A DNA stretch of 55,535 nucleotides from Bacteroidia bacterium (GCA_026391215.1 JAPLDX010000078.1:1-55535); one strand, 5' to 3'. Shown: positions 13,659 to 27,493, counted from the stretch's first letter. The notes: a model not told the origin generated them from the sequence alone. Numbers and translations are program-made.

Positions 13659-15203
13659 TTATTTGGTGTTGGTTATGAATTCAAGCTGGTCGCTGTACGG
13701 AAGAGGTACAGCCTTTACCTCCTCTCCAAATTCAATTACTTTCCGATTTTCCTGGCTGAAAGACGGCCATTCAGGCAAACCTTCACCATTAGGATCGCCG
13801 TTTCTTGCAAAATTAACCCAGTATGATGACATCATCTCCGAGAGGTCATAATCCCATTTTACAAATGGTCTGTTCCATAATTTAAGAGTCTTCAGTGCAT
13901 AACCGAACTCTGAGGAGTGGAATGCCCCGTAGTTGGGTTCCCCGGGTGGTATATGTTTGAAATAGTAAAGGTATGATTTGCTCTGACCTTTTGAACTCTG
14001 GGTAAGAGCCCAGAAATAGTTCTGCCAGCCAAAGAACAACTGTGACTGCAGTTTCTGCGATTGTTTTAATTCCTCGTCATTGCCTGCAGGGAATAGCTTT
14101 AGATATTCTTCAGCCTTTTCTCCATAGGTCTTTATCGCATTCGCCTTGTATACATCCTGTTTGGGGGGTGATCCGAATGAAAAGCCATCATCAGCGTTCC
14201 AGCCTGTGATGAGAGGTACATCGTTTTGCTTTCCGGCATCGAATGTTTCTGTGACCTGAGGTATCACAACACCATCGATAACAAGTCCCGATCTGGCACC
14301 TGCTTTTTGAAGCTCCTGAGCCGGTTTGGATCTCAGATCAGTAATCGATGAGATTCCCATCTTTTCACAAAACCTGACTCCTGCTTCTTCAGCGTCTTTC
14401 AGACCGAATACAAGTGACTCTCCCCTGGGGAACATCCCTCCGCTCTGGGCTATAGCTCTGTGGAACAGACCTTTAGCCAAAGGTGAAACAACCAGTGCAT
14501 TTACGCTGAAGGCTCCTGCGGATTGTCCGGCAATAGTCACGTTGCCAGGATCGCCACCGAAAGCTTCTATGTTTTTGCTGATCCATCTTAGAGCTTCAAT
14601 CTGGTCAAGGATGCCATAATTACCTGATACCTTGTTTGGTGATTCAGCTGAAAGTTCCGGATGGGCAAAGAATCCGAATATACCAAGCCGGTAATTTATT
14701 GTTATAAATACAACTCCTTTCTTTGCCATCTCCTCTCCATCATACAGCGGAACTGTTCCCGATCCTCCTGTAAAGGCTCCGCCATGTATCCAGACCATAA
14801 CCGGACGTTTCTCTGCAGATGTTTGTGCAGCGGTCCATATATTAAGGTATAGGCAATCTTCGCTGAGAGGCTCCAGGGGGGCCATGAATTCCTTTGTCCA
14901 CATCATAAAAGGATTTGGAGGATTCTGTATGGCGGATGGAGGAGGAACATCGCATTTGCGGACCCCCTGCCAGCTTTCAACAGGCTGGGGGGCTTTCCAG
15001 CGCAGTTCTTCCACCGGAGGGGCAGCAAAAGGAACTCCCATGAAGATCTGTACGGCTCCGTCTCCCCCGGTTTTCCCTGAGATCAATCCTGATTCAATCC
15101 TGACACTGTTGACATCAATTTTCTTACCTGCAGTCTTGTTGCCTGATGCACAGGCAGTAAGAACAAGCATGGGAATGATCATAATGAAAAGTAATCTCTT
15201 CAT
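13659..15203 (-). CDS. Type-B carboxylesterase lipoprotein
   Basis: SEDCLYLN, WIHGGAF, GQSAG nucleophile; lipobox LTAC. Confidence 0.92.
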   Translation of the reverse strand: MKRLLFIMIIPMLVLTACASGNKTAGKKIDVNSVRIESGLISGKTGGDGAVQIFMGVPFAAPPVEELRWKAPQPVESWQGVRKCDVPPPSAIQNPPNPFMMWTKEFMAPLEPLSEDCLYLNIWTAAQTSAEKRPVMVWIHGGAFTGGSGTVPLYDGEEMAKKGVVFITINYRLGIFGFFAHPELSAESPNKVSGNYGILDQIEALRWISKNIEAFGGDPGNVTIAGQSAGAFSVNALVVSPLAKGLFHRAIAQSGGMFPRGESLVFGLKDAEEAGVRFCEKMGISSITDLRSKPAQELQKAGARSGLVIDGVVIPQVTETFDAGKQNDVPLITGWNADDGFSFGSPPKQDVYKANAIKTYGEKAEEYLKLFPAGNDEELKQSQKLQSQLFFGWQNYFWALTQSSKGQSKSYLYYFKHIPPGEPNYGAFHSSEFGYALKTLKLWNRPFVKWDYDLSEMMSSYWVNFARNGDPNGEGLPEWPSFSQENRKVIEFGEEVKAVPLPYSDQLEFITNTK

Positions 15204-15209
15204 CTCTTT

Positions 15210-16454
<1,245 letters not shown>

Positions 16455-16519
16455 TTAGGATTTACTCTATTAGACATTTATTAATTACTTTTTATTTCAA
16501 AATTGATTGTTAAATAAGG

Positions 16520-18214
16520 TTATGATACAGGAATTGATTTTCTTGCTTCCCTGTCGGGGTCATTTTTCGCTTCACTGATATCATTTAGTACCATTATTTC
16601 GCCGTTTTCGGATGTGTATTTCGGCCATGCCGGAAGACCTCCGCCATCAGGATTGCCGGTTCTCATGAACTGAAGGAGAGCCCCGGCCATCTTTTCCGAC
16701 AGCTTTCTTGGTCTGGCTCCGCCACCTGTATGTGTCAGCATCAGGTCGGTATTATAGTACCAGAAACAAATATCGACGCAATGGAAAGCCCTCATGCGGT
16801 TATCGAACAGAGGAGGCTGCCAGCAGAACCATGCAACATAGACAGGTGCCGGTTGCTTTACTTTTGCATCTGCAAGAGTTACAACTCCCTGTCGGTTAGC
16901 ACTAACCAGTGACCAGATCTCTACAGGCTTCAGATCAGGAAATGCTTTTGCATAAGCATCTATAACCTCCCCGGCCTTATCTCCGAAACCGGCTCCGAAT
17001 CCAGCCCGCTGCTTAACCTTTTCCTTTACTTCGTCAAGAGTTATATTCTCCAGTGAAGCATCTGTGCGGCTGGGGGCCATTTCATTCATTGTGGAGCAGA
17101 TGATCATCGGAACTTCAGCTGCTGCAGGTGCTGCTTCGGGGAAATAAGGATGCTGAGGAATATAAACTCCATCTGCACAGGGGCTGAATCCCCTTCTGTA
17201 TCCACCGGTTGCCGGGCCTAAATCTTCAGCCAGTTTTGATGCTGCCGAGTTTGCCAGCGTCAGATATTCCTGCCATGGCATCTCCTGAAGCTTACTGATA
17301 TCTTCAGGTTTAAGACCTGCTTCCTTAAGAACATAGCCACCAAGCTTTTCGGCATATTCTTTTTCACCAGTCTTCACCCCTGCGCCACTCAGGACAACTG
17401 CCTTATGTATCAACCCTTTAGCTGAAGGCATAGCAGTCAGTGTTGTGACTTTTGCTCCGCCCCCCGATTGACCCATGATAGTAACGTTATCGGGATCACC
17501 TCCGAAATTTGTTATATTATCTCTTACCCATTCCAGAGCAGCTACAAGGTCAAGCATCCCTACGTTGCCGGATGCAGCAAATTTATCTCCTCCAACACCC
17601 GCAAGGTTTGTAAATCCCAACGGACCGAGTCGGTGATTGACTGAAACAAAGACTACATCATACTTCCTGGAGAAATTCTCACCATTGTAACCATCTTGTT
17701 CTATTCCGTTACCATTGACAAATCCGCCGCCATGAAGCCAGACCATCACAGGTCTTTTCTTCCCGTCATTTATTGCCGGAGTAAACACATTCAGCCTGAG
17801 ACAATCCTCGCTTACATCGTCATAGTTCCAGTGGTCGGCAAATGATTGATAGGCATTTGCATATCTTTTCTCCATACTCTGGGGAGCTGAATTGCCCCAC
17901 CATACTGCAGGGAATACATCGGTCCAGGGTTTGGGCTTCTGAGGAGGCATGAACCTGTTGGCTCCTGAAGTATCAGCGCCATACTGGATCCCAAGAAAAT
18001 AATTTATGCCCCTGAGGATATATCCTTTTACTTTCCCGTATTGAGTATCCGCGAGAGCTAAATTATCTCCGATAAAAAGTTTCTGGCCGTCATCTTCTAC
18101 TTTTTTTGCATCTGCTGATGCACATGATGCCGTCGGAATAATTGCTGCTCCAATGGTGAGCCCTGTTGCTCCGACTCCCATTGTCCTAATGAAATTACGT
18201 CGGTTGGATTTCAT
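16520..18214 (-). CDS. Tat-exported type-B carboxylesterase
   Basis: NRRNFI twin-arginine; SEDCLRLN, WLHGGGF, GQSGG. Confidence 0.92.
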   Translation of the reverse strand: MKSNRRNFIRTMGVGATGLTIGAAIIPTASCASADAKKVEDDGQKLFIGDNLALADTQYGKVKGYILRGINYFLGIQYGADTSGANRFMPPQKPKPWTDVFPAVWWGNSAPQSMEKRYANAYQSFADHWNYDDVSEDCLRLNVFTPAINDGKKRPVMVWLHGGGFVNGNGIEQDGYNGENFSRKYDVVFVSVNHRLGPLGFTNLAGVGGDKFAASGNVGMLDLVAALEWVRDNITNFGGDPDNVTIMGQSGGGAKVTTLTAMPSAKGLIHKAVVLSGAGVKTGEKEYAEKLGGYVLKEAGLKPEDISKLQEMPWQEYLTLANSAASKLAEDLGPATGGYRRGFSPCADGVYIPQHPYFPEAAPAAAEVPMIICSTMNEMAPSRTDASLENITLDEVKEKVKQRAGFGAGFGDKAGEVIDAYAKAFPDLKPVEIWSLVSANRQGVVTLADAKVKQPAPVYVAWFCWQPPLFDNRMRAFHCVDICFWYYNTDLMLTHTGGGARPRKLSEKMAGALLQFMRTGNPDGGGLPAWPKYTSENGEIMVLNDISEAKNDPDREARKSIPVS

Positions 18215-18254
18215 GGGTTTAGTATTAAATTGAAATTATTTTTGTTGTTTTCCT

Positions 18255-18299
18255 CTTTGTGTTACTTTGTGTTGTACTTTGTGCGCCTTTGTGGTTAAG
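18255..18299 (-). repeat. CACAAAG-core tandem repeat, 9-11 bp period
   Basis: Minus strand: aaccacaaag gcgcacaaag tacaacacaaag taacacaaag agg, just after the stop at 18315. Confidence 0.75.
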
Positions 18300-18314
18300 C
18301 TTTCATACTAAAAC

Positions 18315-20027
18315 CTATTCCCTAACAGTTATTACTCCGGTTGCCTTCATAATTGCTGCCGCTTCTGACGGCAGTTTCCAGTTATTGTCAAAAATTCCCT
18401 GGGTGATGATATTATCTGATGTCTCTTTGAAAAGTACAAAATCCTTGTCTTTTTTCAGTGTTTCTACCTTTGATCCCATGAAAGAAAATCCTTCCTGGGA
18501 ACTAGTTTGTTTGGCAGGAGTCCACCACGGAAGTCCTGAATTAACAACGACATAATGGTTATTGAGCGGGAAAATATAGACCAGCCCGTAATCTTTTGCA
18601 TCAGCGTTAAGGTGCACCGGCAGCTTGTCAGCGAATTTTTCAATTATTGCATTAGTTTCTTTTGTTCCGAACAGCACCAGGTTTGAAGTTTCATAATCGC
18701 TCTGCCGTATCTCTTTATCAGATATAACACGGGGGAATACCATAATCCTCCCTCCCATTCCTGACCAGTCAGCAAGGGAAGCAACCTCAGCCTGTCTTGC
18801 TGCCAGTTCCTCCCTGGAAGGATTTCCTCCTGTACCATAGACATATACATGATTGCTGCTGACAGCAGCATACATCGGGCCTTCTGCTCCAGTCTGCTTT
18901 GAAGTCAGATTCGGAGCAAATTTCTTATTGCTCCACGTCCCGTTCACCTTCATGAATGAAACTGCATCTGAAGTCTTGAAGGTGAATGATTTCCCGTCAA
19001 CTTTTGCTGTTGCTTTCTGTGCAGGATTGAACATTGAATGTCCTGCAAGGCTGAGGGTAAATGCTTCAAGGCCGTTTGTTGTTATCTCGATATTGTTCGT
19101 TCCTGTGAATTTTGCATCAATTGTTGCAAGAGTTCCGGGGATCAGGTTATCAAATTTGACCCAGTATGCTTTATTGTATTTGAACCACTTTGTGCTGAAT
19201 TTCACCTGCTGGGGGAAGAGATCCCTGGTAAATTGTGAGAACCATTCGAAGATAAATCCGTCCTTATAGGCATATTCCCAGCTGTTGTGTCCGATACCCG
19301 GGTATTCTGTATAGTTGAACCGTGGTGTAACGGCCTCAAATTTTGCCTTCCATTCCTGCGCTGTTTTATAGAGAAAATCCTTATCCCCCACAAAAAGATG
19401 TACCGGAAGGTTACATGCATTTCCTGTCAGATCGGTTGAACCGTCAGGAGGCGCCGGACAACAGGGGGCAATTGCTGCCCATATATCAGGACGGGTAAGT
19501 CCGAGCCATATTGTTCCGCCACCGCCCATTGACAATCCCGTAAGATAAATGCGATCTTCGTCAATTGAAAAACGGCTTTTGATATCATCGAGCATTTCAT
19601 AGACATCCTGTTCGGGGATTCCCTGGTAACCGGCAGTACCTCTGGCATATGGTGCTGCAACTATATAATCTACATCTTTAAGGACAGGAAAGTATCTTGT
19701 TGCTTCCAGGTCATCCTCCACAGGGACATTACCCGGTTTTATAAAGTCAGTTCCCTGGCTGTTGCCCTGTCCGAAAGCGCGGCGTAAACCAAGCCGGTGA
19801 TTCGACCAGGCACCATGCAGAAATACTACCAGCGGGTATTTTTTTGACTCGTCAAAATTTTTCGGAATATAGATGGCATATGGCTGATCAGTTTCATCAA
19901 CCTTTGAAAAGAAAGAAAGGTCCTGCGGTCCCGGTTTCAACTTCTGGGCACATGCATTACCGGGAATCATCGTAAGAATGGCAATTACCATTAAAACCTG
20001 GCAAAAAACAGATGTAATCTTTTTCAT
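18315..20027 (-). CDS. Exported alpha/beta hydrolase (esterase/peptidase S9-like)
   Basis: PLVVFLHG, YLTGLSMGG, GDKD, GHNSW. Confidence 0.85.
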   Translation of the reverse strand: MKKITSVFCQVLMVIAILTMIPGNACAQKLKPGPQDLSFFSKVDETDQPYAIYIPKNFDESKKYPLVVFLHGAWSNHRLGLRRAFGQGNSQGTDFIKPGNVPVEDDLEATRYFPVLKDVDYIVAAPYARGTAGYQGIPEQDVYEMLDDIKSRFSIDEDRIYLTGLSMGGGGTIWLGLTRPDIWAAIAPCCPAPPDGSTDLTGNACNLPVHLFVGDKDFLYKTAQEWKAKFEAVTPRFNYTEYPGIGHNSWEYAYKDGFIFEWFSQFTRDLFPQQVKFSTKWFKYNKAYWVKFDNLIPGTLATIDAKFTGTNNIEITTNGLEAFTLSLAGHSMFNPAQKATAKVDGKSFTFKTSDAVSFMKVNGTWSNKKFAPNLTSKQTGAEGPMYAAVSSNHVYVYGTGGNPSREELAARQAEVASLADWSGMGGRIMVFPRVISDKEIRQSDYETSNLVLFGTKETNAIIEKFADKLPVHLNADAKDYGLVYIFPLNNHYVVVNSGLPWWTPAKQTSSQEGFSFMGSKVETLKKDKDFVLFKETSDNIITQGIFDNNWKLPSEAAAIMKATGVITVRE

Positions 20028-20150: not shown

Positions 20151-21059
20151 ATGAGTGATAAAGCGAAAAAATGGATTTTGTGGGGAAGCATCTTCATCCT
20201 GTTACTTTCGATTGGCGGAATAGTTTATTCTACTATTATTCCATATTCCGATACTGTTGATATTTTTCAGATAACCTCTATCATGGTGGTAATCGCATCA
20301 GTACTTAACATGATATTCCTTTTAGCAAACAAATTCCAGAGCAGGAAAGGATTCAGGAAGGTCATATGGATTATGACCTGTTTTCTCCCTGTAGTGATAC
20401 TTCTCTTATTTGCCTATGATTTTAAATGGATAACTATAAATTCTGATCTGCTATATAGTCTACTATTGTCTGGAATATTAATTCTTATACCAGTAGCTAC
20501 TATGTACCTGTTTGTCCTTGACGATACCAAAACAATTATGGGAATATCAATTATTCTGTTTTATACCATTTTGAGCCTGGTATTGAAACGTTTCAATTTG
20601 GGAGATGCGGAATCACTTCTAAACATTGGACTTTTATTGATCAGCTGTGGCATGTATTTTTTTGGACTGAAATGTTTCTTTTCCATCAAGAAAAACCGGT
20701 TTCTTAAAGCTGTTTCGATTATTGCTTGTTTGCTCATTTATTTCGGCTGTTTTATAATGATGTACTCTTCTTTTACTTATACAAATACCATTCTGATTAT
20801 TTATAGTATCTCTATATTCCTTTTAACATTGATTGTCCTTATATCGTTGCCGGTATCAGGTTATATTCAATGGAGTACACAGCACAAAAGCCTTCTGAGA
20901 AAGATATTGATACCCTGGATCTTCTTCTTGCTGCTTATTTCAATCAGGTTTGTATTCCCTGATCTTAACAGCCTGTTTTTCCGAGAAGTACGGGGAGGAT
21001 TCCAGGAATTCAGGATGAATGATTATCCAGTAATCAATAAAAACGGACTGGAACCTTAA
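20151..21059 (+). CDS. Hypothetical polytopic membrane protein
   Basis: About 9-10 hydrophobic segments; AT-rich coding; no recognisable motif. Confidence 0.75.
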   Translation: MSDKAKKWILWGSIFILLLSIGGIVYSTIIPYSDTVDIFQITSIMVVIASVLNMIFLLANKFQSRKGFRKVIWIMTCFLPVVILLLFAYDFKWITINSDLLYSLLLSGILILIPVATMYLFVLDDTKTIMGISIILFYTILSLVLKRFNLGDAESLLNIGLLLISCGMYFFGLKCFFSIKKNRFLKAVSIIACLLIYFGCFIMMYSSFTYTNTILIIYSISIFLLTLIVLISLPVSGYIQWSTQHKSLLRKILIPWIFFLLLISIRFVFPDLNSLFFREVRGGFQEFRMNDYPVINKNGLEP

Positions 21060-21063
21060 TAGT

Positions 21064-23871
21064 TCACAGAAGCAGCCACATCAGGTTTCCTGATCCCGGA
21101 TCACCAAAAACTTTCTTTTCAAAGACAAATGAGTAAATCTCATTCAGACTTACAATTAGTCTACCAAGTTTCCTGTCATTTATATAATAGAGGTATTTCC
21201 CGTCAAAAGAGAACATTGGATTTGAACCTTTCAGGCTTAACATCTGGTATCCATTAGACATTGACACTATGATATCGTTCCCCAGGCGAGGAACTGCAGC
21301 ATAGAACTGACGATCGGGGGATATCTCCCAGCAATTAATGTATTGTTGTGACCAGTCAGAGTATTTGTTTCTTGCTTTTGTCAGGTAATAATCGTATAGT
21401 GAATAATTGTTATAGCTTTGTCCGAAATAAACAACTTCTGTTCGAAAAATTCCTTGTGTTTTCTCACATCCTGGCATATCATAACTGTAGTTCGAAGAAA
21501 TAATTGCTCTGTCGTTGGATGCAAACCTGGCATCGCAGATTTTTTTATTATGTGCATCCAGATTTAGACTTGTATCTGCCCATAAATACTTTTGCTTGGT
21601 ATCATTTGAGGATTCTGAAGGTAAAAAAAGTGTCGAAAGCCTGCTGCCAGAAGTATTTGTAGTGAAAGTCAAAAATCGTTCCCTCTGATAACCATTAAGA
21701 TCGCTTATCCTTAACATGCTGTCCCCTGAAGCAGTAATAATATACTTGCCGGTTTTATTAAATTCACATGACCAAACTGTATCGAGATGACCTTCAATAG
21801 TGTCATAAGGAGTAAACTTAAAAATCCTGTTATTATAATTCCAGATCAGTGCATTCTTATCCGAGGAAGCAGTGACAACAAAACGTCCGTCAGGTGAAAT
21901 ATCCAGGGAATTAACACTTCCGGTATGGCCTTCAAGCCTGTAAATGACTGTGCCGGTTGAATCATATATTTCAGCTGTATTGTCTTTTACTACAGCCAGA
22001 AAGTATTTGCCGGGAGGAAAGAAGCGGACCAGCCGGTTGTTCATCAGGTGATTTGGTGATGTTTGAAAATCAAAGATCTTTTCACCTGAACTCGTAAATA
22101 CTTCTCCTGTGCTGTTCTTGTAAATGACTGCAAAGTATTTCGCATCGTCGGACATCTCTATGACTAACACCGGATCCGGTACACTGAAAGTTGTGACGCG
22201 AGAATCCTTCAGGTCCAATAAAATAATTTCATTTCCGCTGCTCCATCCATAAAGGTGAGTGCCTGATCTGTTCATCCTGAAGGAACAGATTGAATCCTTC
22301 ACCGGGATGGAGACAGGCAGAAATTCCTGTGGTACAGAGGAATCGCCTGCAGAAATTTTCCCGTTCAAAAGTGAATGGAAGCTCCTGATAATAATTCCCT
22401 GAACAAGAGATGACAGTGTATCTTCTTCCCTTATCTTAAAAGCCGTATTTATACTAGTCAGAGGATCAACTTTCTCCTGCAAAAGTGCAAATACCGTGTT
22501 TTCCCTTATCTCCTGTGTATTTTTCTGCTTGAAGTAATATCTTATCCCTAGTCCGATTAAACCAATAAAGATTATAGCTACAATTCTTGTAAGACGTTTC
22601 AATGCTCTCTGTTGTGAATGGAGCTTTTCCTTGCTTTGTTTTACAAACTGAGTTAATGCAGGCGACAAAAATAGACTTTTTTCATATGGGGCAAGGTACT
22701 CAAGATCTTCATTGTTAAGCCAGGTTTTCCTTGTACTGAAAGCCTGGTAAGCATTTTCAACAAACTGTCGTACTTCCAGCAGTTCTTTTTCTGAAAGTGT
22801 AAATTTCTCATAGATCTTGGCAGCAAGTGCATCATGCCTCAACTCAAAATGTCCCGCTTCATCTCTCTCTCTGAGTATCCGGAGATCAACAAATTTTTCC
22901 AGGTATCTGATCAGATCAGGCTCTGATATTCCTGTGCCAAATGCTTTGATCGATTCCCCTATCTCCTGTGCGGTCATCTGTTTCTTAGTACCCTGGACCG
23001 ATACAAACGATTTAAGGATAGACATTCCTGTTTCAGGGACATCCATTTCATATACCTGCTCCTCAAGGAATTGCCCAAGCAGGTCTGATACGCTGCCGGC
23101 CCGGGCCAGCAAATCTCCGGAGAACTTAACGTTTTCTGATTCTATTTCTGCAGTTGCCAGACGGAAGATCCTGTCAAGATATATCTGCATGTAAGTAAGT
23201 TCAATTTCATTCCCTCCCGGACAAAGCTTATCTATCAATTCTTCTGAAAACCCTGTTTCTGTCTCAATCCCATATACTTTACATGGACCTTCAACTGCGT
23301 TTATGGCATTTGCCCTTTTCATCTTCTCAACCCTGAAACGATTGATAAAGATTTCGGGGAGCTCTGATTCAAACTCTGTCATCCCGGCCAGAAACTCTTC
23401 CCTGATAACGAAGATGATCCTGCATTGGGTTTCAGATTCAGATATCTCTTTTATGATCTTTATGAAGCCTTCTTTTTCTTCCTGGCTTCCGAAAATGAAG
23501 AGCTCTTCAAACTGATCGAATATCAGGAAGACCGGCTTGAAATGATCCAGGTATATTGATTGTAATCTCTCACTGACAGACTGGTTCTTCTTAAGCTTTG
23601 TGAGAGCCTCTTTATTAAATGCATCATTCAGACTGTCAATGATATTGCTCCCTCTTCTCACACTCACAGGCAGCCAGTCGCTTTCATCAAACCTTGATGC
23701 AAGTCCGCAGTTCACAAGTGATGATTTTCCTGTCCCTGAGATCCCGTATACAAGAAGCATCTTGCCCTCGAAAACCCTCCGGTAGAGTTCCGTTATTTCC
23801 TGGTCGCGGCCGAAGAAGACTTCGCGGTCGTTTATTGTATAAGCATCAAGAAACTTGAACGGGGACTTCAT
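21064..23871 (-). CDS. nSTAND1-like P-loop NTPase + TM helix + WD40 beta-propeller
   Basis: SPFKFL..Y...D..FFGR, Walker A GISGTGKS, Walker B LIFDQFEELF, FELRHD, TM IVAIIFIGLIGLGI, WD40 repeats GHTGSVNSLDISPDG and GHLDTVWSCEFN. Confidence 0.9.
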   Translation of the reverse strand: MKSPFKFLDAYTINDREVFFGRDQEITELYRRVFEGKMLLVYGISGTGKSSLVNCGLASRFDESDWLPVSVRRGSNIIDSLNDAFNKEALTKLKKNQSVSERLQSIYLDHFKPVFLIFDQFEELFIFGSQEEKEGFIKIIKEISESETQCRIIFVIREEFLAGMTEFESELPEIFINRFRVEKMKRANAINAVEGPCKVYGIETETGFSEELIDKLCPGGNEIELTYMQIYLDRIFRLATAEIESENVKFSGDLLARAGSVSDLLGQFLEEQVYEMDVPETGMSILKSFVSVQGTKKQMTAQEIGESIKAFGTGISEPDLIRYLEKFVDLRILRERDEAGHFELRHDALAAKIYEKFTLSEKELLEVRQFVENAYQAFSTRKTWLNNEDLEYLAPYEKSLFLSPALTQFVKQSKEKLHSQQRALKRLTRIVAIIFIGLIGLGIRYYFKQKNTQEIRENTVFALLQEKVDPLTSINTAFKIREEDTLSSLVQGIIIRSFHSLLNGKISAGDSSVPQEFLPVSIPVKDSICSFRMNRSGTHLYGWSSGNEIILLDLKDSRVTTFSVPDPVLVIEMSDDAKYFAVIYKNSTGEVFTSSGEKIFDFQTSPNHLMNNRLVRFFPPGKYFLAVVKDNTAEIYDSTGTVIYRLEGHTGSVNSLDISPDGRFVVTASSDKNALIWNYNNRIFKFTPYDTIEGHLDTVWSCEFNKTGKYIITASGDSMLRISDLNGYQRERFLTFTTNTSGSRLSTLFLPSESSNDTKQKYLWADTSLNLDAHNKKICDARFASNDRAIISSNYSYDMPGCEKTQGIFRTEVVYFGQSYNNYSLYDYYLTKARNKYSDWSQQYINCWEISPDRQFYAAVPRLGNDIIVSMSNGYQMLSLKGSNPMFSFDGKYLYYINDRKLGRLIVSLNEIYSFVFEKKVFGDPGSGNLMWLLL

Positions 23872-23875
23872 ATTC

Positions 23876-23939
23876 TTAAAACTTTAAACCTTAAACCTTA
23901 AACCTTAAACCTTAAACCTTAAACCTTAAACCTTAAACT
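23876..23939 (-). repeat. 7-bp tandem repeat (GGTTTAA)n
   Basis: Seven perfect TTAAACC copies at 23884-23932 plus degenerate flanking copies; fills most of the intergenic gap. Confidence 0.97.
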
Positions 23940-24970
23940 TCAATCCCCCCTATGGCCAACATCAGTGCCTTATACTCCTCTAGCAGAATATTGTAATTAC
24001 TCAGTGCCCTCAGATCACATTTTTCGGTAACCTCCGTTCCGAGATACATCAGATGCCCGCTCCTGTATTTTGTGTACATAAAGATGTCTTTCCTTATGTC
24101 AAATTTCTCCTTTGCATCAATTACTTCTGAGTTGGTATCAATTATCAGTGGCGACAGGTTCAGGTAATCGTCGAACGATTTGATCGACTTCATTAATAGC
24201 ACTGACTGGCTGTCGGAGAATTTTGTCTCATCAATCTCTTCGCCTTTGAAATCGGAATCGGAGCTGTTCAGGAGGTCGATAATATGATGGAACTTAGCTT
24301 CATGTATCCTTGGCTTTATGACTTTTATGTCTCTCACCGAAACAAGCCTGTATTTTGCAAAAAATGATATCCGCTGAAGTATCATTGTAAGCTTCTCCTC
24401 ATACTCGACGCACCTTTTTTCAATCTCTCCCTCATCGAGATTGATCTGGTAGTGGCCTATTTCATTCCTTTCCGGGACCCAGAAATCAATAGCAGCAAAG
24501 AACTTCTTATCGAACTGTTCATTCATCTCCGGAAGGAACCATTCAACTTTCTGTTCACTGTAGGCTGTGGCAAGCGCTCTTATCAGCCAGCAGAAGTTGC
24601 CCATTGTCAGTACCTGGAACCTGTCTGCAAACTCTTTCCTTACCTGGTCCGGCAGAACAATTTTTTTATTTGTCACATCGTACCATACCTGGCAAACCAT
24701 TACGAAACTTACAAACTGGATTGTCCGTTCGATTGTCTTAAAGATCTGGTCGAGCCTTTGCCGTCCCAGCTGACGCATTGAACCGGAGAAGAGCCTTCTG
24801 AGCTCCACTCCTGCCGGCCATGGAAAATTCTTGATAACCAGATCGGCAATGATCCGGAGGTCTATCTCTTCATTTTCATCTTTATCAGGCATATACTTTG
24901 CCAGAGCAGGACGGTATTTAACCATTTCGACAAATACCTTCTGGATAAGATCCTCATTTATAACAGCCAT
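23933..24970 (-). CDS. Hypothetical cytoplasmic protein with RxxxxH (HEPN-like) motif, partner of the STAND NTPase
   Basis: 345 aa, largely helical, no signal peptide; TMGNF...ERNEIGHY; co-oriented 61 bp upstream of the NTPase gene. Confidence 0.7.
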   Translation of the reverse strand: MAVINEDLIQKVFVEMVKYRPALAKYMPDKDENEEIDLRIIADLVIKNFPWPAGVELRRLFSGSMRQLGRQRLDQIFKTIERTIQFVSFVMVCQVWYDVTNKKIVLPDQVRKEFADRFQVLTMGNFCWLIRALATAYSEQKVEWFLPEMNEQFDKKFFAAIDFWVPERNEIGHYQINLDEGEIEKRCVEYEEKLTMILQRISFFAKYRLVSVRDIKVIKPRIHEAKFHHIIDLLNSSDSDFKGEEIDETKFSDSQSVLLMKSIKSFDDYLNLSPLIIDTNSEVIDAKEKFDIRKDIFMYTKYRSGHLMYLGTEVTEKCDLRALSNYNILLEEYKALMLAIGGIEV

Positions 24971-25025: not shown

Positions 25026-25913
25026 TTATTCCTTTTTTGAATTCGCAACCATCGTATTGAACAATTCAAGCTGCTCTTTCATGGCAGCAACCCTGTCAGC
25101 CGGTTCTGTGCGGCCTTCAAGCAAGATCCATCCTGAATAGCCTATACCTACAAGCAGGTCAAACAACTGCTGGTACGGGTAAGTACCTTCATTAAGCTCC
25201 CGGATATGAACAGTGTCGCCAAACCACTTGCATACACTGTTGAAGTTGGCTTCGAGTCCCGGAGGCAGCAGATCCTGCTCATTGCAGTTCCAGCACATCT
25301 TTACGTTATCCTCTGTAACCTGGTCAAATATGGCTTTCATATTTGGGATTTCCTGAGTGATATCTCCATGTACTTCCACTCTTAACAACTGACCGTAATC
25401 TTGGGCAAACTTTCCGACTTCATTCAGCGAATCAGCTATCTGTTTAATTGTTTTTACATTTGGCACCTCAGGAGGCATGTAATTTGGTTTAACCTTAAGA
25501 CCTGTTGCCCCGATATCCCTGCAGAGCTTTATGTACTCTTTTGCCTGGTCTATATTTTCGCGAAGCTTTGCCGGATCAGGACTGTGGAACTCAAAGTTGG
25601 AACCGTAGCCAATACAGATAACTGAACTGTCAGCAAATCTCTTTCTGACCTCACCACGCTGATCTGCAGTCAGGTTAATTTCAACCTTATGTGCATGTTC
25701 TGTTCTCAGTTCCACACCCATGTAACCTGCTTTTTCACAATTGGATATGAGAGTCGGAAGATCCCAGTCACTGCCCCACTGATAAGTTACCAGGCCGAAT
25801 TTCATCGCTGCCGGAACAGATCTTGCAAGCTCCGGAAAATCCCTGAAAAATGCCAGAGCTACTCCGGCACCAAGGCTGGTTTGAATAAACTGACGTCTAT
25901 TAATATATTTCAT
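25026..25913 (-). CDS. Tat-exported AP_endonuc_2 TIM barrel (sugar-phosphate isomerase/epimerase family)
   Basis: NRRQFI; GVELR, VEVHG, HIRE, GYSGWILLE. Confidence 0.82.
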   Translation of the reverse strand: MKYINRRQFIQTSLGAGVALAFFRDFPELARSVPAAMKFGLVTYQWGSDWDLPTLISNCEKAGYMGVELRTEHAHKVEINLTADQRGEVRKRFADSSVICIGYGSNFEFHSPDPAKLRENIDQAKEYIKLCRDIGATGLKVKPNYMPPEVPNVKTIKQIADSLNEVGKFAQDYGQLLRVEVHGDITQEIPNMKAIFDQVTEDNVKMCWNCNEQDLLPPGLEANFNSVCKWFGDTVHIRELNEGTYPYQQLFDLLVGIGYSGWILLEGRTEPADRVAAMKEQLELFNTMVANSKKE

Positions 25914-25945
25914 AATCTTAAATTATCATGCAATCTTGCATTTTT

Positions 25946-26105
25946 CGTTTGATCGTTTGATCGTTTGATCGTTTGATCGTTCGATCGTTCGATCGTTTTA
26001 ACCTTCAAACCTTCAAACTTTCATATTTTCTCCCCTTCTCCCATTCTCCCATTCTCCCATTCTTTCTTGTACCGTCGCACCTTTGTACCGTTGTACCTTT
26101 GCACC
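25946..26105 (-). repeat. Four-block composite 8-bp tandem array
   Basis: Minus strand blocks: GGTRCAAM, GGGAGAAT, GGTTTGAA, CGATCRAA. Confidence 0.92.
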
Positions 26106-26125
26106 ATTAATAAGTTATGCCATGC

Positions 26126-27493
26126 TTAAACTTCTTCGGGAACTATGTAAGGTTTTCTATACTCGCGGGTGAGCAATTTATCTGCTTCCTTATCCTTGAC
26201 AAACTTTTCCGTTGTACCATCGAATGTCAGCTGCCTTCCGACCTTGTACGAGATATTTGCAAGTGCCGGAAGTGCCGATGACATATAACCTTCAAGAATG
26301 TCGCAATGCAGCGTTTCATTTTTCCCAGACCGTATAGCATCAATGAAATTGGCATAATGTGCCGAGTCGCCGGGAGGTGCCATAAATGTCGGATCAGAAG
26401 TCTTCGGACTCATATCCGATCCGGCAAACGGTTTGTCCTCACGTTTGCGGTAAGCTTTCCAGTTTCCTTCATTGATCTCAAGGTAACCTTCCGTACCATA
26501 GAACATATTGCCTATTCTGATACCAAGGCCAGCTTCTGCATGTGTATACCTTCCGCGTGTTTCAAATTCGAGGATTTTTCCATCCTTATACCTGAAGACC
26601 GATGTCTGCGTGTTCGGTGTCTCCTGCGAACATTCCTTTGGATCGATCCCGAAAATATTTCCCATGGAATAAATTGTAACAGGATGTTCATTCTTGTTCA
26701 GTCCCCAGCGGGCTATATCGAACTGGTGAGGTCCCTGGTTTGCAGTATCACCGCCGCCGGTATTCCAGTGCCAGTGCCAGTTATAATGGGTACGTTTTTC
26801 ATTATATGGCTGCCATGCTGCAGGACCAAGCCATAAATCATAATGGAGTGATGGCGGTGGTGTTCCGTCTGGTGCAATTCCAAATGAATCACGCGGTTTG
26901 AAGCATAATCCCTTTGCCATGAACACTTCACCTATGCCGCCTTCGTGAAGGAATTTAATTGCTTCCATTACACCCGTGATTGAACGGTTCTGCATTCCGC
27001 ACTGGACACGGACGTTGTATTTACGCGCTGCCTGAACCATCCGGCGTCCTTCAAGTACTGTATGACAGGCAGGCTTCTCAACATAAACATGCTTGCCTGC
27101 CTGGCAAGCCCATATTGTACCAAGTGCATGCCAGAAATTAGGAACGGCAAAAGAGACAGCGTCTATCTCCTTGTCATCAAAGACCTTGCGCATATCCCAG
27201 ACTGTTTCTGGTGTCTCTCCCGTTTTATTTATCACCTGATTGATCCGGTCAGGGAAGAATTGTTCATCGGCATCACAGAGGGTTTTTATCCAGACGTTCT
27301 TGCTTTCTTTTATAACAGACCAGTTGTCTATATGTGTACCACCCTGACTGCGGATGCCGATAACGGCAACATGAATACGATCATTTGCCCCCTGTATCGA
27401 CCTGTACGACCTGGCGCTTAATGCCATACCCCCAATGGCTAAACCTGCAGTGCCCAGAACGCTTTGTTTGATAAATTCTCTTCTTTTTGTCAT
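26126..27493 (-). CDS. Tat-exported Gfo/Idh/MocA oxidoreductase
   Basis: KRREFIK; GKHVYVEKP; WHWHW..GGGD..NQGPH. Confidence 0.92.
   Translation of the reverse strand: MTKRREFIKQSVLGTAGLAIGGMALSARSYRSIQGANDRIHVAVIGIRSQGGTHIDNWSVIKESKNVWIKTLCDADEQFFPDRINQVINKTGETPETVWDMRKVFDDKEIDAVSFAVPNFWHALGTIWACQAGKHVYVEKPACHTVLEGRRMVQAARKYNVRVQCGMQNRSITGVMEAIKFLHEGGIGEVFMAKGLCFKPRDSFGIAPDGTPPPSLHYDLWLGPAAWQPYNEKRTHYNWHWHWNTGGGDTANQGPHQFDIARWGLNKNEHPVTIYSMGNIFGIDPKECSQETPNTQTSVFRYKDGKILEFETRGRYTHAEAGLGIRIGNMFYGTEGYLEINEGNWKAYRKREDKPFAGSDMSPKTSDPTFMAPPGDSAHYANFIDAIRSGKNETLHCDILEGYMSSALPALANISYKVGRQLTFDGTTEKFVKDKEADKLLTREYRKPYIVPEEV

Follow-up and report, generated by a model that had tools for sequence, protein, structure and literature searches.

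The known bacterial NLR-like receptors, such as Avs and bNACHT, reside in the cytosol, where they detect phage proteins once these have entered. In Avs and similar receptors the effector, the nucleoside triphosphatase (NTPase) and the sensor are joined in one cytosolic polypeptide, by which cytoplasmic phage proteins are sensed. The subject of this study is a pair of genes from a Bacteroidia bacterium in which these parts are arranged differently. The pair lies in a stretch of 55,535 nucleotides (GCA_026391215.1 JAPLDX010000078.1:1-55535), which is called the window hereafter, and encodes P0001, a STAND NTPase followed by a transmembrane (TM) helix and WD40 repeats, and P0002, a smaller protein with a HEPN-like motif. 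What Avs and other bacterial NLR-like receptors would have in common with this pair is a STAND NTPase, a variable repeat sensor, which may consist of WD40 repeats, and a cell-death effector that acts on oligomerisation (available passages of 10.64898/2026.01.04.697583 and 10.64898/2026.10.19.760177). In the window pair, however, the proposed effector is a separate gene, and a TM helix stands between NTPase and sensor. A canonical tripartite STAND/NLR protein holds its three parts in a single polypeptide, which is not the case here; a WD40 repeat sensor is present. The pair is most likely an NLR-like STAND module that is split in two genes and spans the membrane, with an uncatalogued HEPN-plus-beta protein as effector or adaptor. 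Its architecture is unusual, and we infer every functional step proposed below.

Several other described systems resemble the pair in part. A 2026 survey of defence STANDs (10.64898/2026.01.04.697583) treats WD40 sensors and nSTAND clades, and its available passages contain no membrane-spanning or split HEPN form. The nSTAND1 clade, to which P0001 belongs, was named by Kaur, Iyer, Burroughs and Aravind in 2021 (PMC8195603, the supplement of which includes an nSTAND1 alignment), and the conflict systems described there show the same swapping of effectors, among them TIR and caspase. In section 7 of the paper these proteins have N-terminal effector-associated domains or effectors and C-terminal FGS lectin domains; neither a HEPN-plus-beta partner gene nor a TM-WD40 layout occurs in it. 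A HEPN RNase as the output of a STAND NTPase is known from the HEPN-STAND-ATPase-TPR-S1 architecture (Anantharaman et al. 2013, PMC3710099, Table 1). The forms listed there are single-chain fusions, whereas the HEPN-like protein of the window is separate, has no Pfam model, carries a beta domain and has a membrane-anchored partner. The EACC1-caspase systems (Kaur et al. 2020, PMC7159879, as far as available) likewise consist of two genes, a small constant one at the 5' side and a large variable one at the 3' side, and are membrane-associated, sometimes with nSTAND1. EACC1 itself is a small single-TM domain, which forms pores according to the available part of 10.1101/2025.11.14.688446, whereas P0002 is a soluble protein of 345 aa; as P0002 has neither a TM segment nor an EACC1 match in Pfam, its identification as EACC1 was rejected. 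HEPN-MNT toxins, RnlA/LsoA and Csm6 share the HEPN fold and the R-N/x-x-x-x-H site and were among the best structural matches of P0002. Unlike these, P0002 has an NTPase as its regulator and no MNT, Dmd-like or CARF partner, and it continues into a beta-rich C-terminal part. By term searches of open-access text no description of this gene pair was found; supplements may list the architecture.

Architecture of the NTPase protein

The coordinates, lengths, shared strand and 61-bp spacing that the original prediction gave for the two genes were confirmed from the open reading frames (ORFs) and translations (Table 1). Both genes lie on the minus strand, with P0002 upstream of P0001. The prediction had also described P0001 as a protein that starts directly with a STAND NTPase and continues with one TM helix and WD40 repeats, and this description held throughout. 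P0001 has no N-terminal effector domain, because its nSTAND1 match starts at residue 4; the same span was recovered in the genome search. The Walker A (GISGTGKSS, 43-51) and Walker B (FDQFEE, 118-123) motifs are present, and in an alignment of 16 partner NTPases the residues G43, S45, G46, G48, K49, S51, D119, E122 and E123 were invariant, as was an N-terminal PFKFL peptide.

The predicted TM segment stands right after the NTPase module in 14 of the 16 partner NTPases, one of the two exceptions being a truncated ORF. It is followed by WD40 repeats (E 1.8e-21), and beta-propeller models of Pfam cover approximately residues 528-738. Since the NTPase must be cytoplasmic, the topology would place the approximately 490 residues after the helix, including the propeller, beyond the inner membrane. 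In sequence this region has changed much faster than the NTPase: its identity to the closest orthologue was 46% (77% for the NTPase) and that to paralogues 22-31% (51-57%). In other loci the part behind the TM segment is longer, shorter or replaced, and in one locus the repeats (LRR and TPR) form a separate gene.

Linkage of the two genes

Homologues of P0002 were numerous, with 1048 at E<=0.001 in a collection clustered at 90% and 591 among the 50%-identity representatives; one of them, with 83% identity, is labelled by NCBI as from a Bacteroidia metagenome-assembled genome. The distribution was patchy. Among 41 genomes sampled around that of the window the family occurred in eight, its own included, and the other seven all belong to the same genus (7 of its 24 other genomes), with up to six family matches in one genome. 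A search of the phylum with a CHAT-fused query found the family in 4 of 401 genomes, the window's included.

Both proteins were used as tblastn queries against 15 loci fetched from relatives. In 14 of these, as in the window, the gene immediately upstream of the nSTAND1 gene, and in the same orientation, is P0002-like. The longer relatives of P0002 described below are linked in the same way: an nSTAND1 gene directly follows a CHAT-fused gene (L058) and a TIR-fused gene (L059), and likewise two metagenomic genes, L060 and L061, of the AraC-type helix-turn-helix (HTH) and the AraC-HTH-cyclase form. The latter two were the only loci, out of 77, with full-length relatives in a metagenome scan made with an HTH-form alignment, a scan that seeded on the AraC HTH. 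Direct adjacency was thereby found in 19 of 20 loci, across identities of 25-85%, and because of this the pairing is regarded as a conserved module and not a chance neighbourhood. The co-occurrence of the two genes in other genomes, on which the original prediction depended, is thus well supported.

The genes flanking the pair differ between genomes of one genus. A second HEPN-like and nSTAND1 pair is present in the window's genome (G000:C28:7966-10824; 66% and 52% identical), cut by the contig end, and so is a third, more canonical nSTAND1 with an open frame of 1031 aa (G000:C101:54232-55470), beside which no P0002-like partner was detected. In 5 of the 15 relatives' loci (L014, L015, L019, L023 and L024) one or both genes contain frameshifts or stop codons or are reduced to remnants; such interruptions may be genuine gene decay or may have arisen in the assembly of the draft genomes.

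In six of the 20 loci (L014, L018, L023, L024, L027 and L060) the NTPase gene is followed by one for an outer-membrane beta-barrel protein. The barrel protein has approximately 350-375 aa and a signal-peptide-like start, and matched OMP_b-brl_2 (E 7e-14 and 1e-4) and OMP_b-brl (E 1.9e-6). Such a linked gene fits an envelope-spanning assembly. No barrel gene stands beside the window's pair, and one protein query found no homologue in the window's genome, which is 98.9% complete. The CHAT-fused pair of L058 (G411:C34, 398-13092) has other company, namely a 1283-aa protein with amidase_2, caspase and GDSL-lipase domains, a second CHAT protein, a MoxR-like AAA_5 ATPase and a vWA protein, a gene set that looks like a conflict-system cluster.

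A probable divergent HEPN domain in P0002

P0002 had no Pfam match at E<=0.1 or E<=1, none in NCBIfam, and matched no PADLOC family. Its AF2 model, built from a 68-sequence alignment, reached pLDDT 93 and pTM 0.92. This model consists of a helical part (residues 1-206), a beta part (208-320) and a C-terminal helix; the original prediction of a soluble helical protein therefore describes the first 206 residues and fails for the remainder, which is largely beta.

When the domain model of residues 1-207 was compared by VIA-align, five of the six best rows were HEPN proteins, and the HEPN rows had Z scores of 10.0-7.6. The list was headed by 4txa (Roquin N-terminus, Z 10.0), 1wwp (Z 9.0) and 4qik (Z 9.0), followed by the HEPN toxin 8xdj (Z 8.8), 2hsb (Z 8.2) and the HEPN toxin 7ae2 (Z 7.8). 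Lower rows included four Csm6 entries, the sacsin HEPN, RnlA twice, LsoA, 5yep, 1ylm, 1jog, 1ufb and 1wol, and approximately 20 of the 50 rows listed were HEPN proteins. Six of these are so titled, and 1wwp, 2hsb and 1ylm are named as HEPN in the available part of PMC3710099. The alignments covered most of their targets (112 of 119 residues in 1wwp; 118 of 130). The others of these approximately 20 rows, neither so titled nor so named, we take to be HEPN proteins as well. With the whole model, the helical part gave middling rows (Roquin Z 6.9, RnlA, Csm6), mixed with bundles of G-protein-coupled receptors (GPCRs).

Traces of the HEPN signal were also found at the level of sequence. Four homologues had sub-threshold Pfam matches to three HEPN families, all around the motif region: RiboL-PSP (E 5.5e-4 and 3.9e-3; 20.3 and 17.5 bits, cut-off 28.4), Swt1 (E 7.6e-3; 17.0 bits, cut-off 27.5) and Csm6_HEPN (E 0.028; 14.7 bits, cut-off 23.4). 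When the alignment of standalone family members was compared by hhalign with 11 RiboL-PSP HEPN proteins from genomes of the phylum, R168 and H173 fell on the invariant R and H of the latter.

The setting of the motif agrees with such an assignment. RNEIGH lies in the domain model at the end of a helix (155-172), which is followed by a loop and then by the last long helix (180-200). According to the available part of PMC3710099, the Rx4-6H site of HEPN lies at a helix end before the last long helix, with a polar residue after the R and an acidic residue upstream. Position, polar residue and upstream acidic residue in P0002 all fit that description; the Ex3[KR] form of the acidic residue is not present in P0002. 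The motif alone is weak evidence, because RxxxxH was found in 25% of shuffled P0002 sequences (RNxxxH in 1%), and it was therefore judged by its conservation and structural setting. E81, in the helix 70-100, occurred in 30 of 30 motif-bearing representatives and in 17% of 82 without the motif; the corresponding values were 97% and 18% for E56 and 97% and 2% for G124. Another set of residues (P50, L60, R72, Q75, F203, Y207, I215 and P274) is conserved with or without the motif. The original prediction took the lone RxxxxH as the HEPN signature; the motif is present and conserved, and it is this conservation, not its mere occurrence, that is informative.

Residues 47-207, approximately, were judged from these results together to be a divergent HEPN domain of a family without a curated model. 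The beta-rich part behind it begins with what appears to be an OB-fold-like barrel (approximately residues 206-272; VIA rows 3rd4 with Z 6.4, the Pf3 SSB 1pfs with Z 6.2, PriB, SSB and RecO); the fold-search rows bear on this barrel, and residues 273-345 were barely probed by them. A YLNLSPLIID motif in the beta-rich part is conserved family-wide, with P274 invariant and D278 nearly so in 68 sequences.

Motif retention and N-terminal fusion

In 118 representatives that cover the motif region, aligned to the hidden Markov model of the family and scored for R[NDHQ]xxxH, the motif was confined to forms without an N-terminal extension. It was kept in 33 of the 46 representatives without an N-terminal extension, in none of five with an extension of 40-140 aa and in none of 67 with a longer one. 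The P0002-like module is C-terminal in the longer relatives, and a variety of domains precedes it. The first 33 longer or unusual forms comprised 18 with CHAT, 10 with an AraC-type HTH (three of them also with a nucleotide cyclase and one with a weak TIR match), one joined to nSTAND1 and four without a recognised family. Among 46 further forms 38 had CHAT, two had caspase C14 and six had no family. The TIR-fused form of L059 was found in a genome. One metagenomic representative, P0163 (717 aa), combines the C-terminal half of the P0002-like module and nSTAND1 in one predicted protein; either the two genes are naturally fused there or the gene was called wrongly.

The fetched loci gave the same picture, with ERNxxGH and its accompanying residues kept in 12 of 14 standalone copies of the genus and the motif absent from all five fused forms. 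The conservation of RxxxxH in homologues, which had been expected, is thus found in the standalone forms. As far as the aligned sequences go, the motif is lost only in forms fused to another effector-type domain and in a small number of standalone copies. In a FastTree phylogeny built without the motif columns two groups were formed. The first contains 27 motif-bearing standalone forms, with the AraC-HTH clade nested within them and the caspase-C14 pair beside them; the second contains 67 sequences, all without the motif and mostly CHAT-fused.

This pattern is suggestive of a division of labour, in which the standalone form would be an active HEPN effector, while in the fused forms the HEPN site would have decayed and the module would be kept for a role that all forms share. 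Because the NTPase neighbour is invariable, this second role would most simply be docking on the NTPase.

Proposed mechanism and its strength

Based on these results, the two genes are interpreted as one split, membrane-spanning NLR-like (STAND) module with a HEPN RNase effector, to which we give a probability of roughly 0.6. P0001 would sit in the inner membrane with its nSTAND1 NTPase in the cytoplasm and its fast-diverging WD40 propeller outside, where the propeller would bind an extracytoplasmic cue. The signal would pass through the single TM helix and lead to nucleotide exchange in the NTPase and to oligomerisation in the membrane. HEPN sites usually work as dimers. Docked copies of P0002 would be brought together by the oligomer, and their RNxxxH sites, with E81, E56 and G124, would then form an active, metal-independent RNase, for which the OB-like domain may hold the RNA substrate. 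Cleavage of RNA would arrest the cell in the manner of abortive infection. In the sister lineages the HEPN-plus-beta module, which lacks the catalytic residues and carries an N-terminal CHAT, caspase, TIR or AraC-HTH (with or without cyclase), would serve as a docking adaptor. The domain content, the placement of the TM helix, the linkage of the genes and the pattern in which the motif is kept or lost are observed here, whereas binding of P0002 to P0001, activation by proximity, the RNase activity, the propeller as sensor, the nature of the cue and the role in defence are presumed.

A role in conflict or defence is supported because the distribution of the family is patchy, multi-copy and often disrupted. 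It is further supported because the sensor is variable, because CHAT, caspase and TIR occur as alternatives, and because one locus lies beside caspase, MoxR-like and vWA genes.

A number of observations weigh against the interpretation as a whole or against parts of it. With regard to the fold, all VIA Z scores of the helical domain are below approximately 13, the level under which the tool advises caution about generic helical-bundle matches, and GPCR rows are interleaved from rank 14 of the list. Foldseek gave no match against the PDB at E<=0.001, either with the whole model or with the domain model, and no Pfam HEPN model reached its cut-off in P0002 or in the four homologues mentioned. The hhalign match comprises 25 columns at 14.7% probability and covers the motif helix only, and sequence-profile searches of the PDB with two family alignments gave three chance rows and none, respectively, with nothing relevant among them. 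The HEPN fold that had been predicted is accordingly favoured by the best VIA-align rows and finds nothing in Foldseek, sub-threshold matches in Pfam and a single aligned helix in hhalign. With regard to the motif, two standalone paralogues of one genome (G022), L025 and L026, with 42% identity, have lost its R (AVDEAGH and ELNEAGY) and are each still followed by an nSTAND1 gene, and ten full-length unextended representatives are without it, one of which, P0147, has an Rx5H spacing. The link between fusion and motif loss amounts to approximately two informative independent contrasts, none of them opposite (sign test, p 0.5), and for this reason the pattern is coherent but not statistically proven. 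With regard to linkage, the exceptional locus, L019, is rearranged, with a gene remnant and a gene for an AAA_14/DUF4143 ATPase between the partners. Partners with AraC-HTH or cyclase domains are as readily explained by ordinary signalling as by defence. Finally, neither protein has a PADLOC model: in PADLOC-DB 2.0.0, a library that dates from 2023, P0002 matched no family and P0001 gave chance-level matches only (E 0.013 to 0.041), so the pair is not among the defence systems catalogued there.

The original prediction of a split NLR-like system is nevertheless supported. It could have failed on the conservation of the motif, on the fold or on the co-occurrence of the genes; all three were examined and on none of them did it fail.

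Alternative explanations

Ordinary, non-immune transmembrane signalling is the main rival, which we consider unlikely and which is kept alive by the AraC-HTH and cyclase forms and by the metabolic surroundings of the pair. The propeller would then sense a nutrient, a glycan or envelope stress, and the output would be an AraC-HTH or a cyclase elsewhere in the family and RNA turnover by HEPN here. In Bacteroidota, hybrid two-component systems combine periplasmic beta-propellers with AraC HTH outputs, and with their TM helix or helices they recall both the window pair and the sister lineages with an AraC-HTH. Those systems use a relay of histidine kinase and receiver, whereas the window pair has a STAND NTPase, and no kinase domain was found in P0001 with Pfam. 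The AraC-type HTH makes up a considerable part of the extended partners (10 of 33, three with cyclase), the NTPase partner is kept in both HTH-form loci examined, and the outer-membrane barrel linked in 6 of 20 loci would suit such a system too. The pair moreover shares its strand with the esterase and sugar-metabolism genes around it, and the gaps are short (55 bp to the upstream gene). The other fusions, with CHAT, caspase and TIR, are on the other hand typical cell-death or immune effectors, and the patchy distribution, the several paralogues per genome and the frequent disruption also speak against this rival, as do the flanking genes that vary within the genus and the locus beside caspase, MoxR-like and vWA genes.

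P0002 might also be an adaptor or regulator only, its RNxxxH binding RNA or the NTPase and the effector lying elsewhere, for example in the TM or periplasmic part of P0001 or in the neighbouring multi-TM protein P0005 (Table 1). The module does have a non-catalytic function, since it persists without the motif in the CHAT, caspase, TIR and HTH forms, and the residues conserved independently of the motif (P50, L60, R72, Q75, F203, Y207, I215 and P274) agree with this. Inactive nucleic-acid-binding HEPN domains are, in addition, described in the available part of PMC3710099. That P0002 is nothing else than an adaptor is quite improbable, however, as conservation of E56, E81, R168, N169, H173 and G124 reaches 97-100% precisely in the forms without another fused effector domain, and the motif is kept in nearly all standalone copies of the genus (12 of 14).

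An arrangement like that of a toxin-antitoxin pair, with P0002 as a HEPN toxin that P0001 holds inactive until P0001 is degraded or titrated, appears very improbable. The HEPN toxins of HEPN-MNT pairs (8xdj, 7ae2 and 5yep) are among the best structural matches and the two genes are tightly linked, but P0001, an NTPase of 935 aa that includes a sensor region, is neither a small labile antitoxin nor an MNT. Moreover, L014 and L023 have a disrupted NTPase gene beside an intact P0002-like gene, a state that a cell with a classical toxin-antitoxin pair would not survive, provided that the disruptions are not errors of assembly. That the genes are unrelated neighbours and RNEIGH a product of chance, as the frequency of RxxxxH in shuffled sequences (25%) might suggest, can practically be dismissed in view of an adjacency in 19 of 20 loci at 25-85% identity and a motif in 33 of 46 standalone representatives.

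Genomic surroundings and the spacer repeat

Table 1. Positions of the gene pair, its domains and associated features in the window
Feature	Residues	Position	Strand	Basis or remark
P0005, 302-aa multi-TM protein, possible third component		20151..21059	+	convergent, 4 bp from P0001 end
P0001, 935 aa, nSTAND1 NTPase, TM helix and WD40 region		21064..23871	-	
Extracytoplasmic region by topology, proposed sensor	446-935	21067..22536	-	WD40/beta-propeller Pfam matches
Single predicted TM helix	427-445	22537..22593	-	Kyte-Doolittle scan
nSTAND1 NTPase domain	4-352	22816..23862	-	Pfam PF20703, E 4.1e-41, 142.3 bits (cut-off 27.1)
Tandem repeat with a 7-nt unit (8.6 copies), which fills the spacer of the gene pair		23879..23938	.	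TRF score 113, 98% matches
P0002, 345 aa, predicted cytoplasmic HEPN-like and beta-domain protein, proposed effector		23933..24970	-	ORF, translation, AF2 model
Beta-rich C-terminal part	208-345	23936..24349	-	AF2 secondary structure
Helical domain (HEPN-like core approximately 47-207)	1-207	24350..24970	-	domain model, pLDDT 94.9
RNEIGH (R168, N169, H173), candidate HEPN catalytic motif	168-173	24452..24469	-	

The surroundings of the pair are metabolic and unrelated to it. The downstream flank (13659-20027) holds four esterase genes, namely two carboxylesterases with BD-FAE-like matches, one CBM48-esterase and one putative esterase. The upstream flank (25026-27493), on the same strand as the pair and separated from P0002 by 55 bp, encodes a xylose-isomerase-like TIM-barrel protein with a TAT signal and a GFO/IDH/MocA oxidoreductase, and ABC-transporter genes are also among the neighbours in the window. 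The neighbours had originally been described as unrelated sugar genes, which is correct as to their being unrelated to the pair and too narrow otherwise, since they are metabolic genes of which only some concern sugars. Scans for sigma-70 promoters (9 found, 10.2 expected; consensus sigma-70 was scanned for, with Bacteroidota-type promoters outside the scan) and for terminators (5 found, 3.8 expected) remained at chance level.

P0005, which is transcribed towards P0001, had no Pfam match. Homologues of it convergently abut the NTPase gene in 3 of 16 loci of the genus (the window, L015 and L017), and the copy of this arrangement in L017 is of a different paralogue lineage. The homologue in L015 has a weak match, below the cut-off, to CyanoTRADDas_TM, a TRADD-N-associated domain with two TM segments (E 0.0048). 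P0005 is a possible third component of the module.

The heptanucleotide repeat of the spacer begins in the last codons of P0002 and stops 8 nt before the ATG of P0001. No run of at least four of its units was found elsewhere in the window's genome, and in another genome the equivalent spacer (L017) holds a different repeat of 14 nt in approximately four copies. The repeat may act as a slipped-strand switch. In reads and contigs from four runs of one study the contigs stop within the repeat instead of crossing it, and therefore no variation in copy number could be read; the peak in depth at the repeat in these runs is due to look-alike repeats in other contigs.

Of the sampled words of positions 23300-24500, 93-98% occur in three runs from a single study with the label freshwater sediment metagenome, two of which may have given rise to the assembly; other sequencing runs contain only small shares. 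No RNA run is among those listed as containing this part.

Biological significance

The results can also be drawn together in a wider reading, which is possible rather than probable. The family would then consist of transmembrane NLR-like receptors, and no STAND switch before them would have been shown to respond to what happens outside the cytoplasm. Interchangeable cytoplasmic outputs would dock on them through the HEPN-plus-beta module, which would itself be an RNase when standalone and a dead adaptor when CHAT, caspase, TIR or HTH-cyclase is added; the barrel would span the envelope, and the heptanucleotide repeat would be an on/off switch.

If this were true, cues such as phage adsorption or injection, a breach of the envelope or attack by a competitor would be relayed across the inner membrane. 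A STAND sensor outside the inner membrane with its output inside would mean surveillance before or at entry, unlike that of the cytosolic Avs and bNACHT, and in its logic such a device would be closer to the pattern-recognition receptors with which plants and animals monitor the outside across their membranes. The family would moreover represent a natural experiment in effector exchange, since in some members the docking module is a HEPN that seems active and in others a degenerate one combined with CHAT, caspase, TIR or HTH-cyclase. Should the pair serve ordinary signalling instead, it would still represent an undescribed route in Bacteroidia by which a periplasmic propeller acts on transcription or on the decay of RNA.

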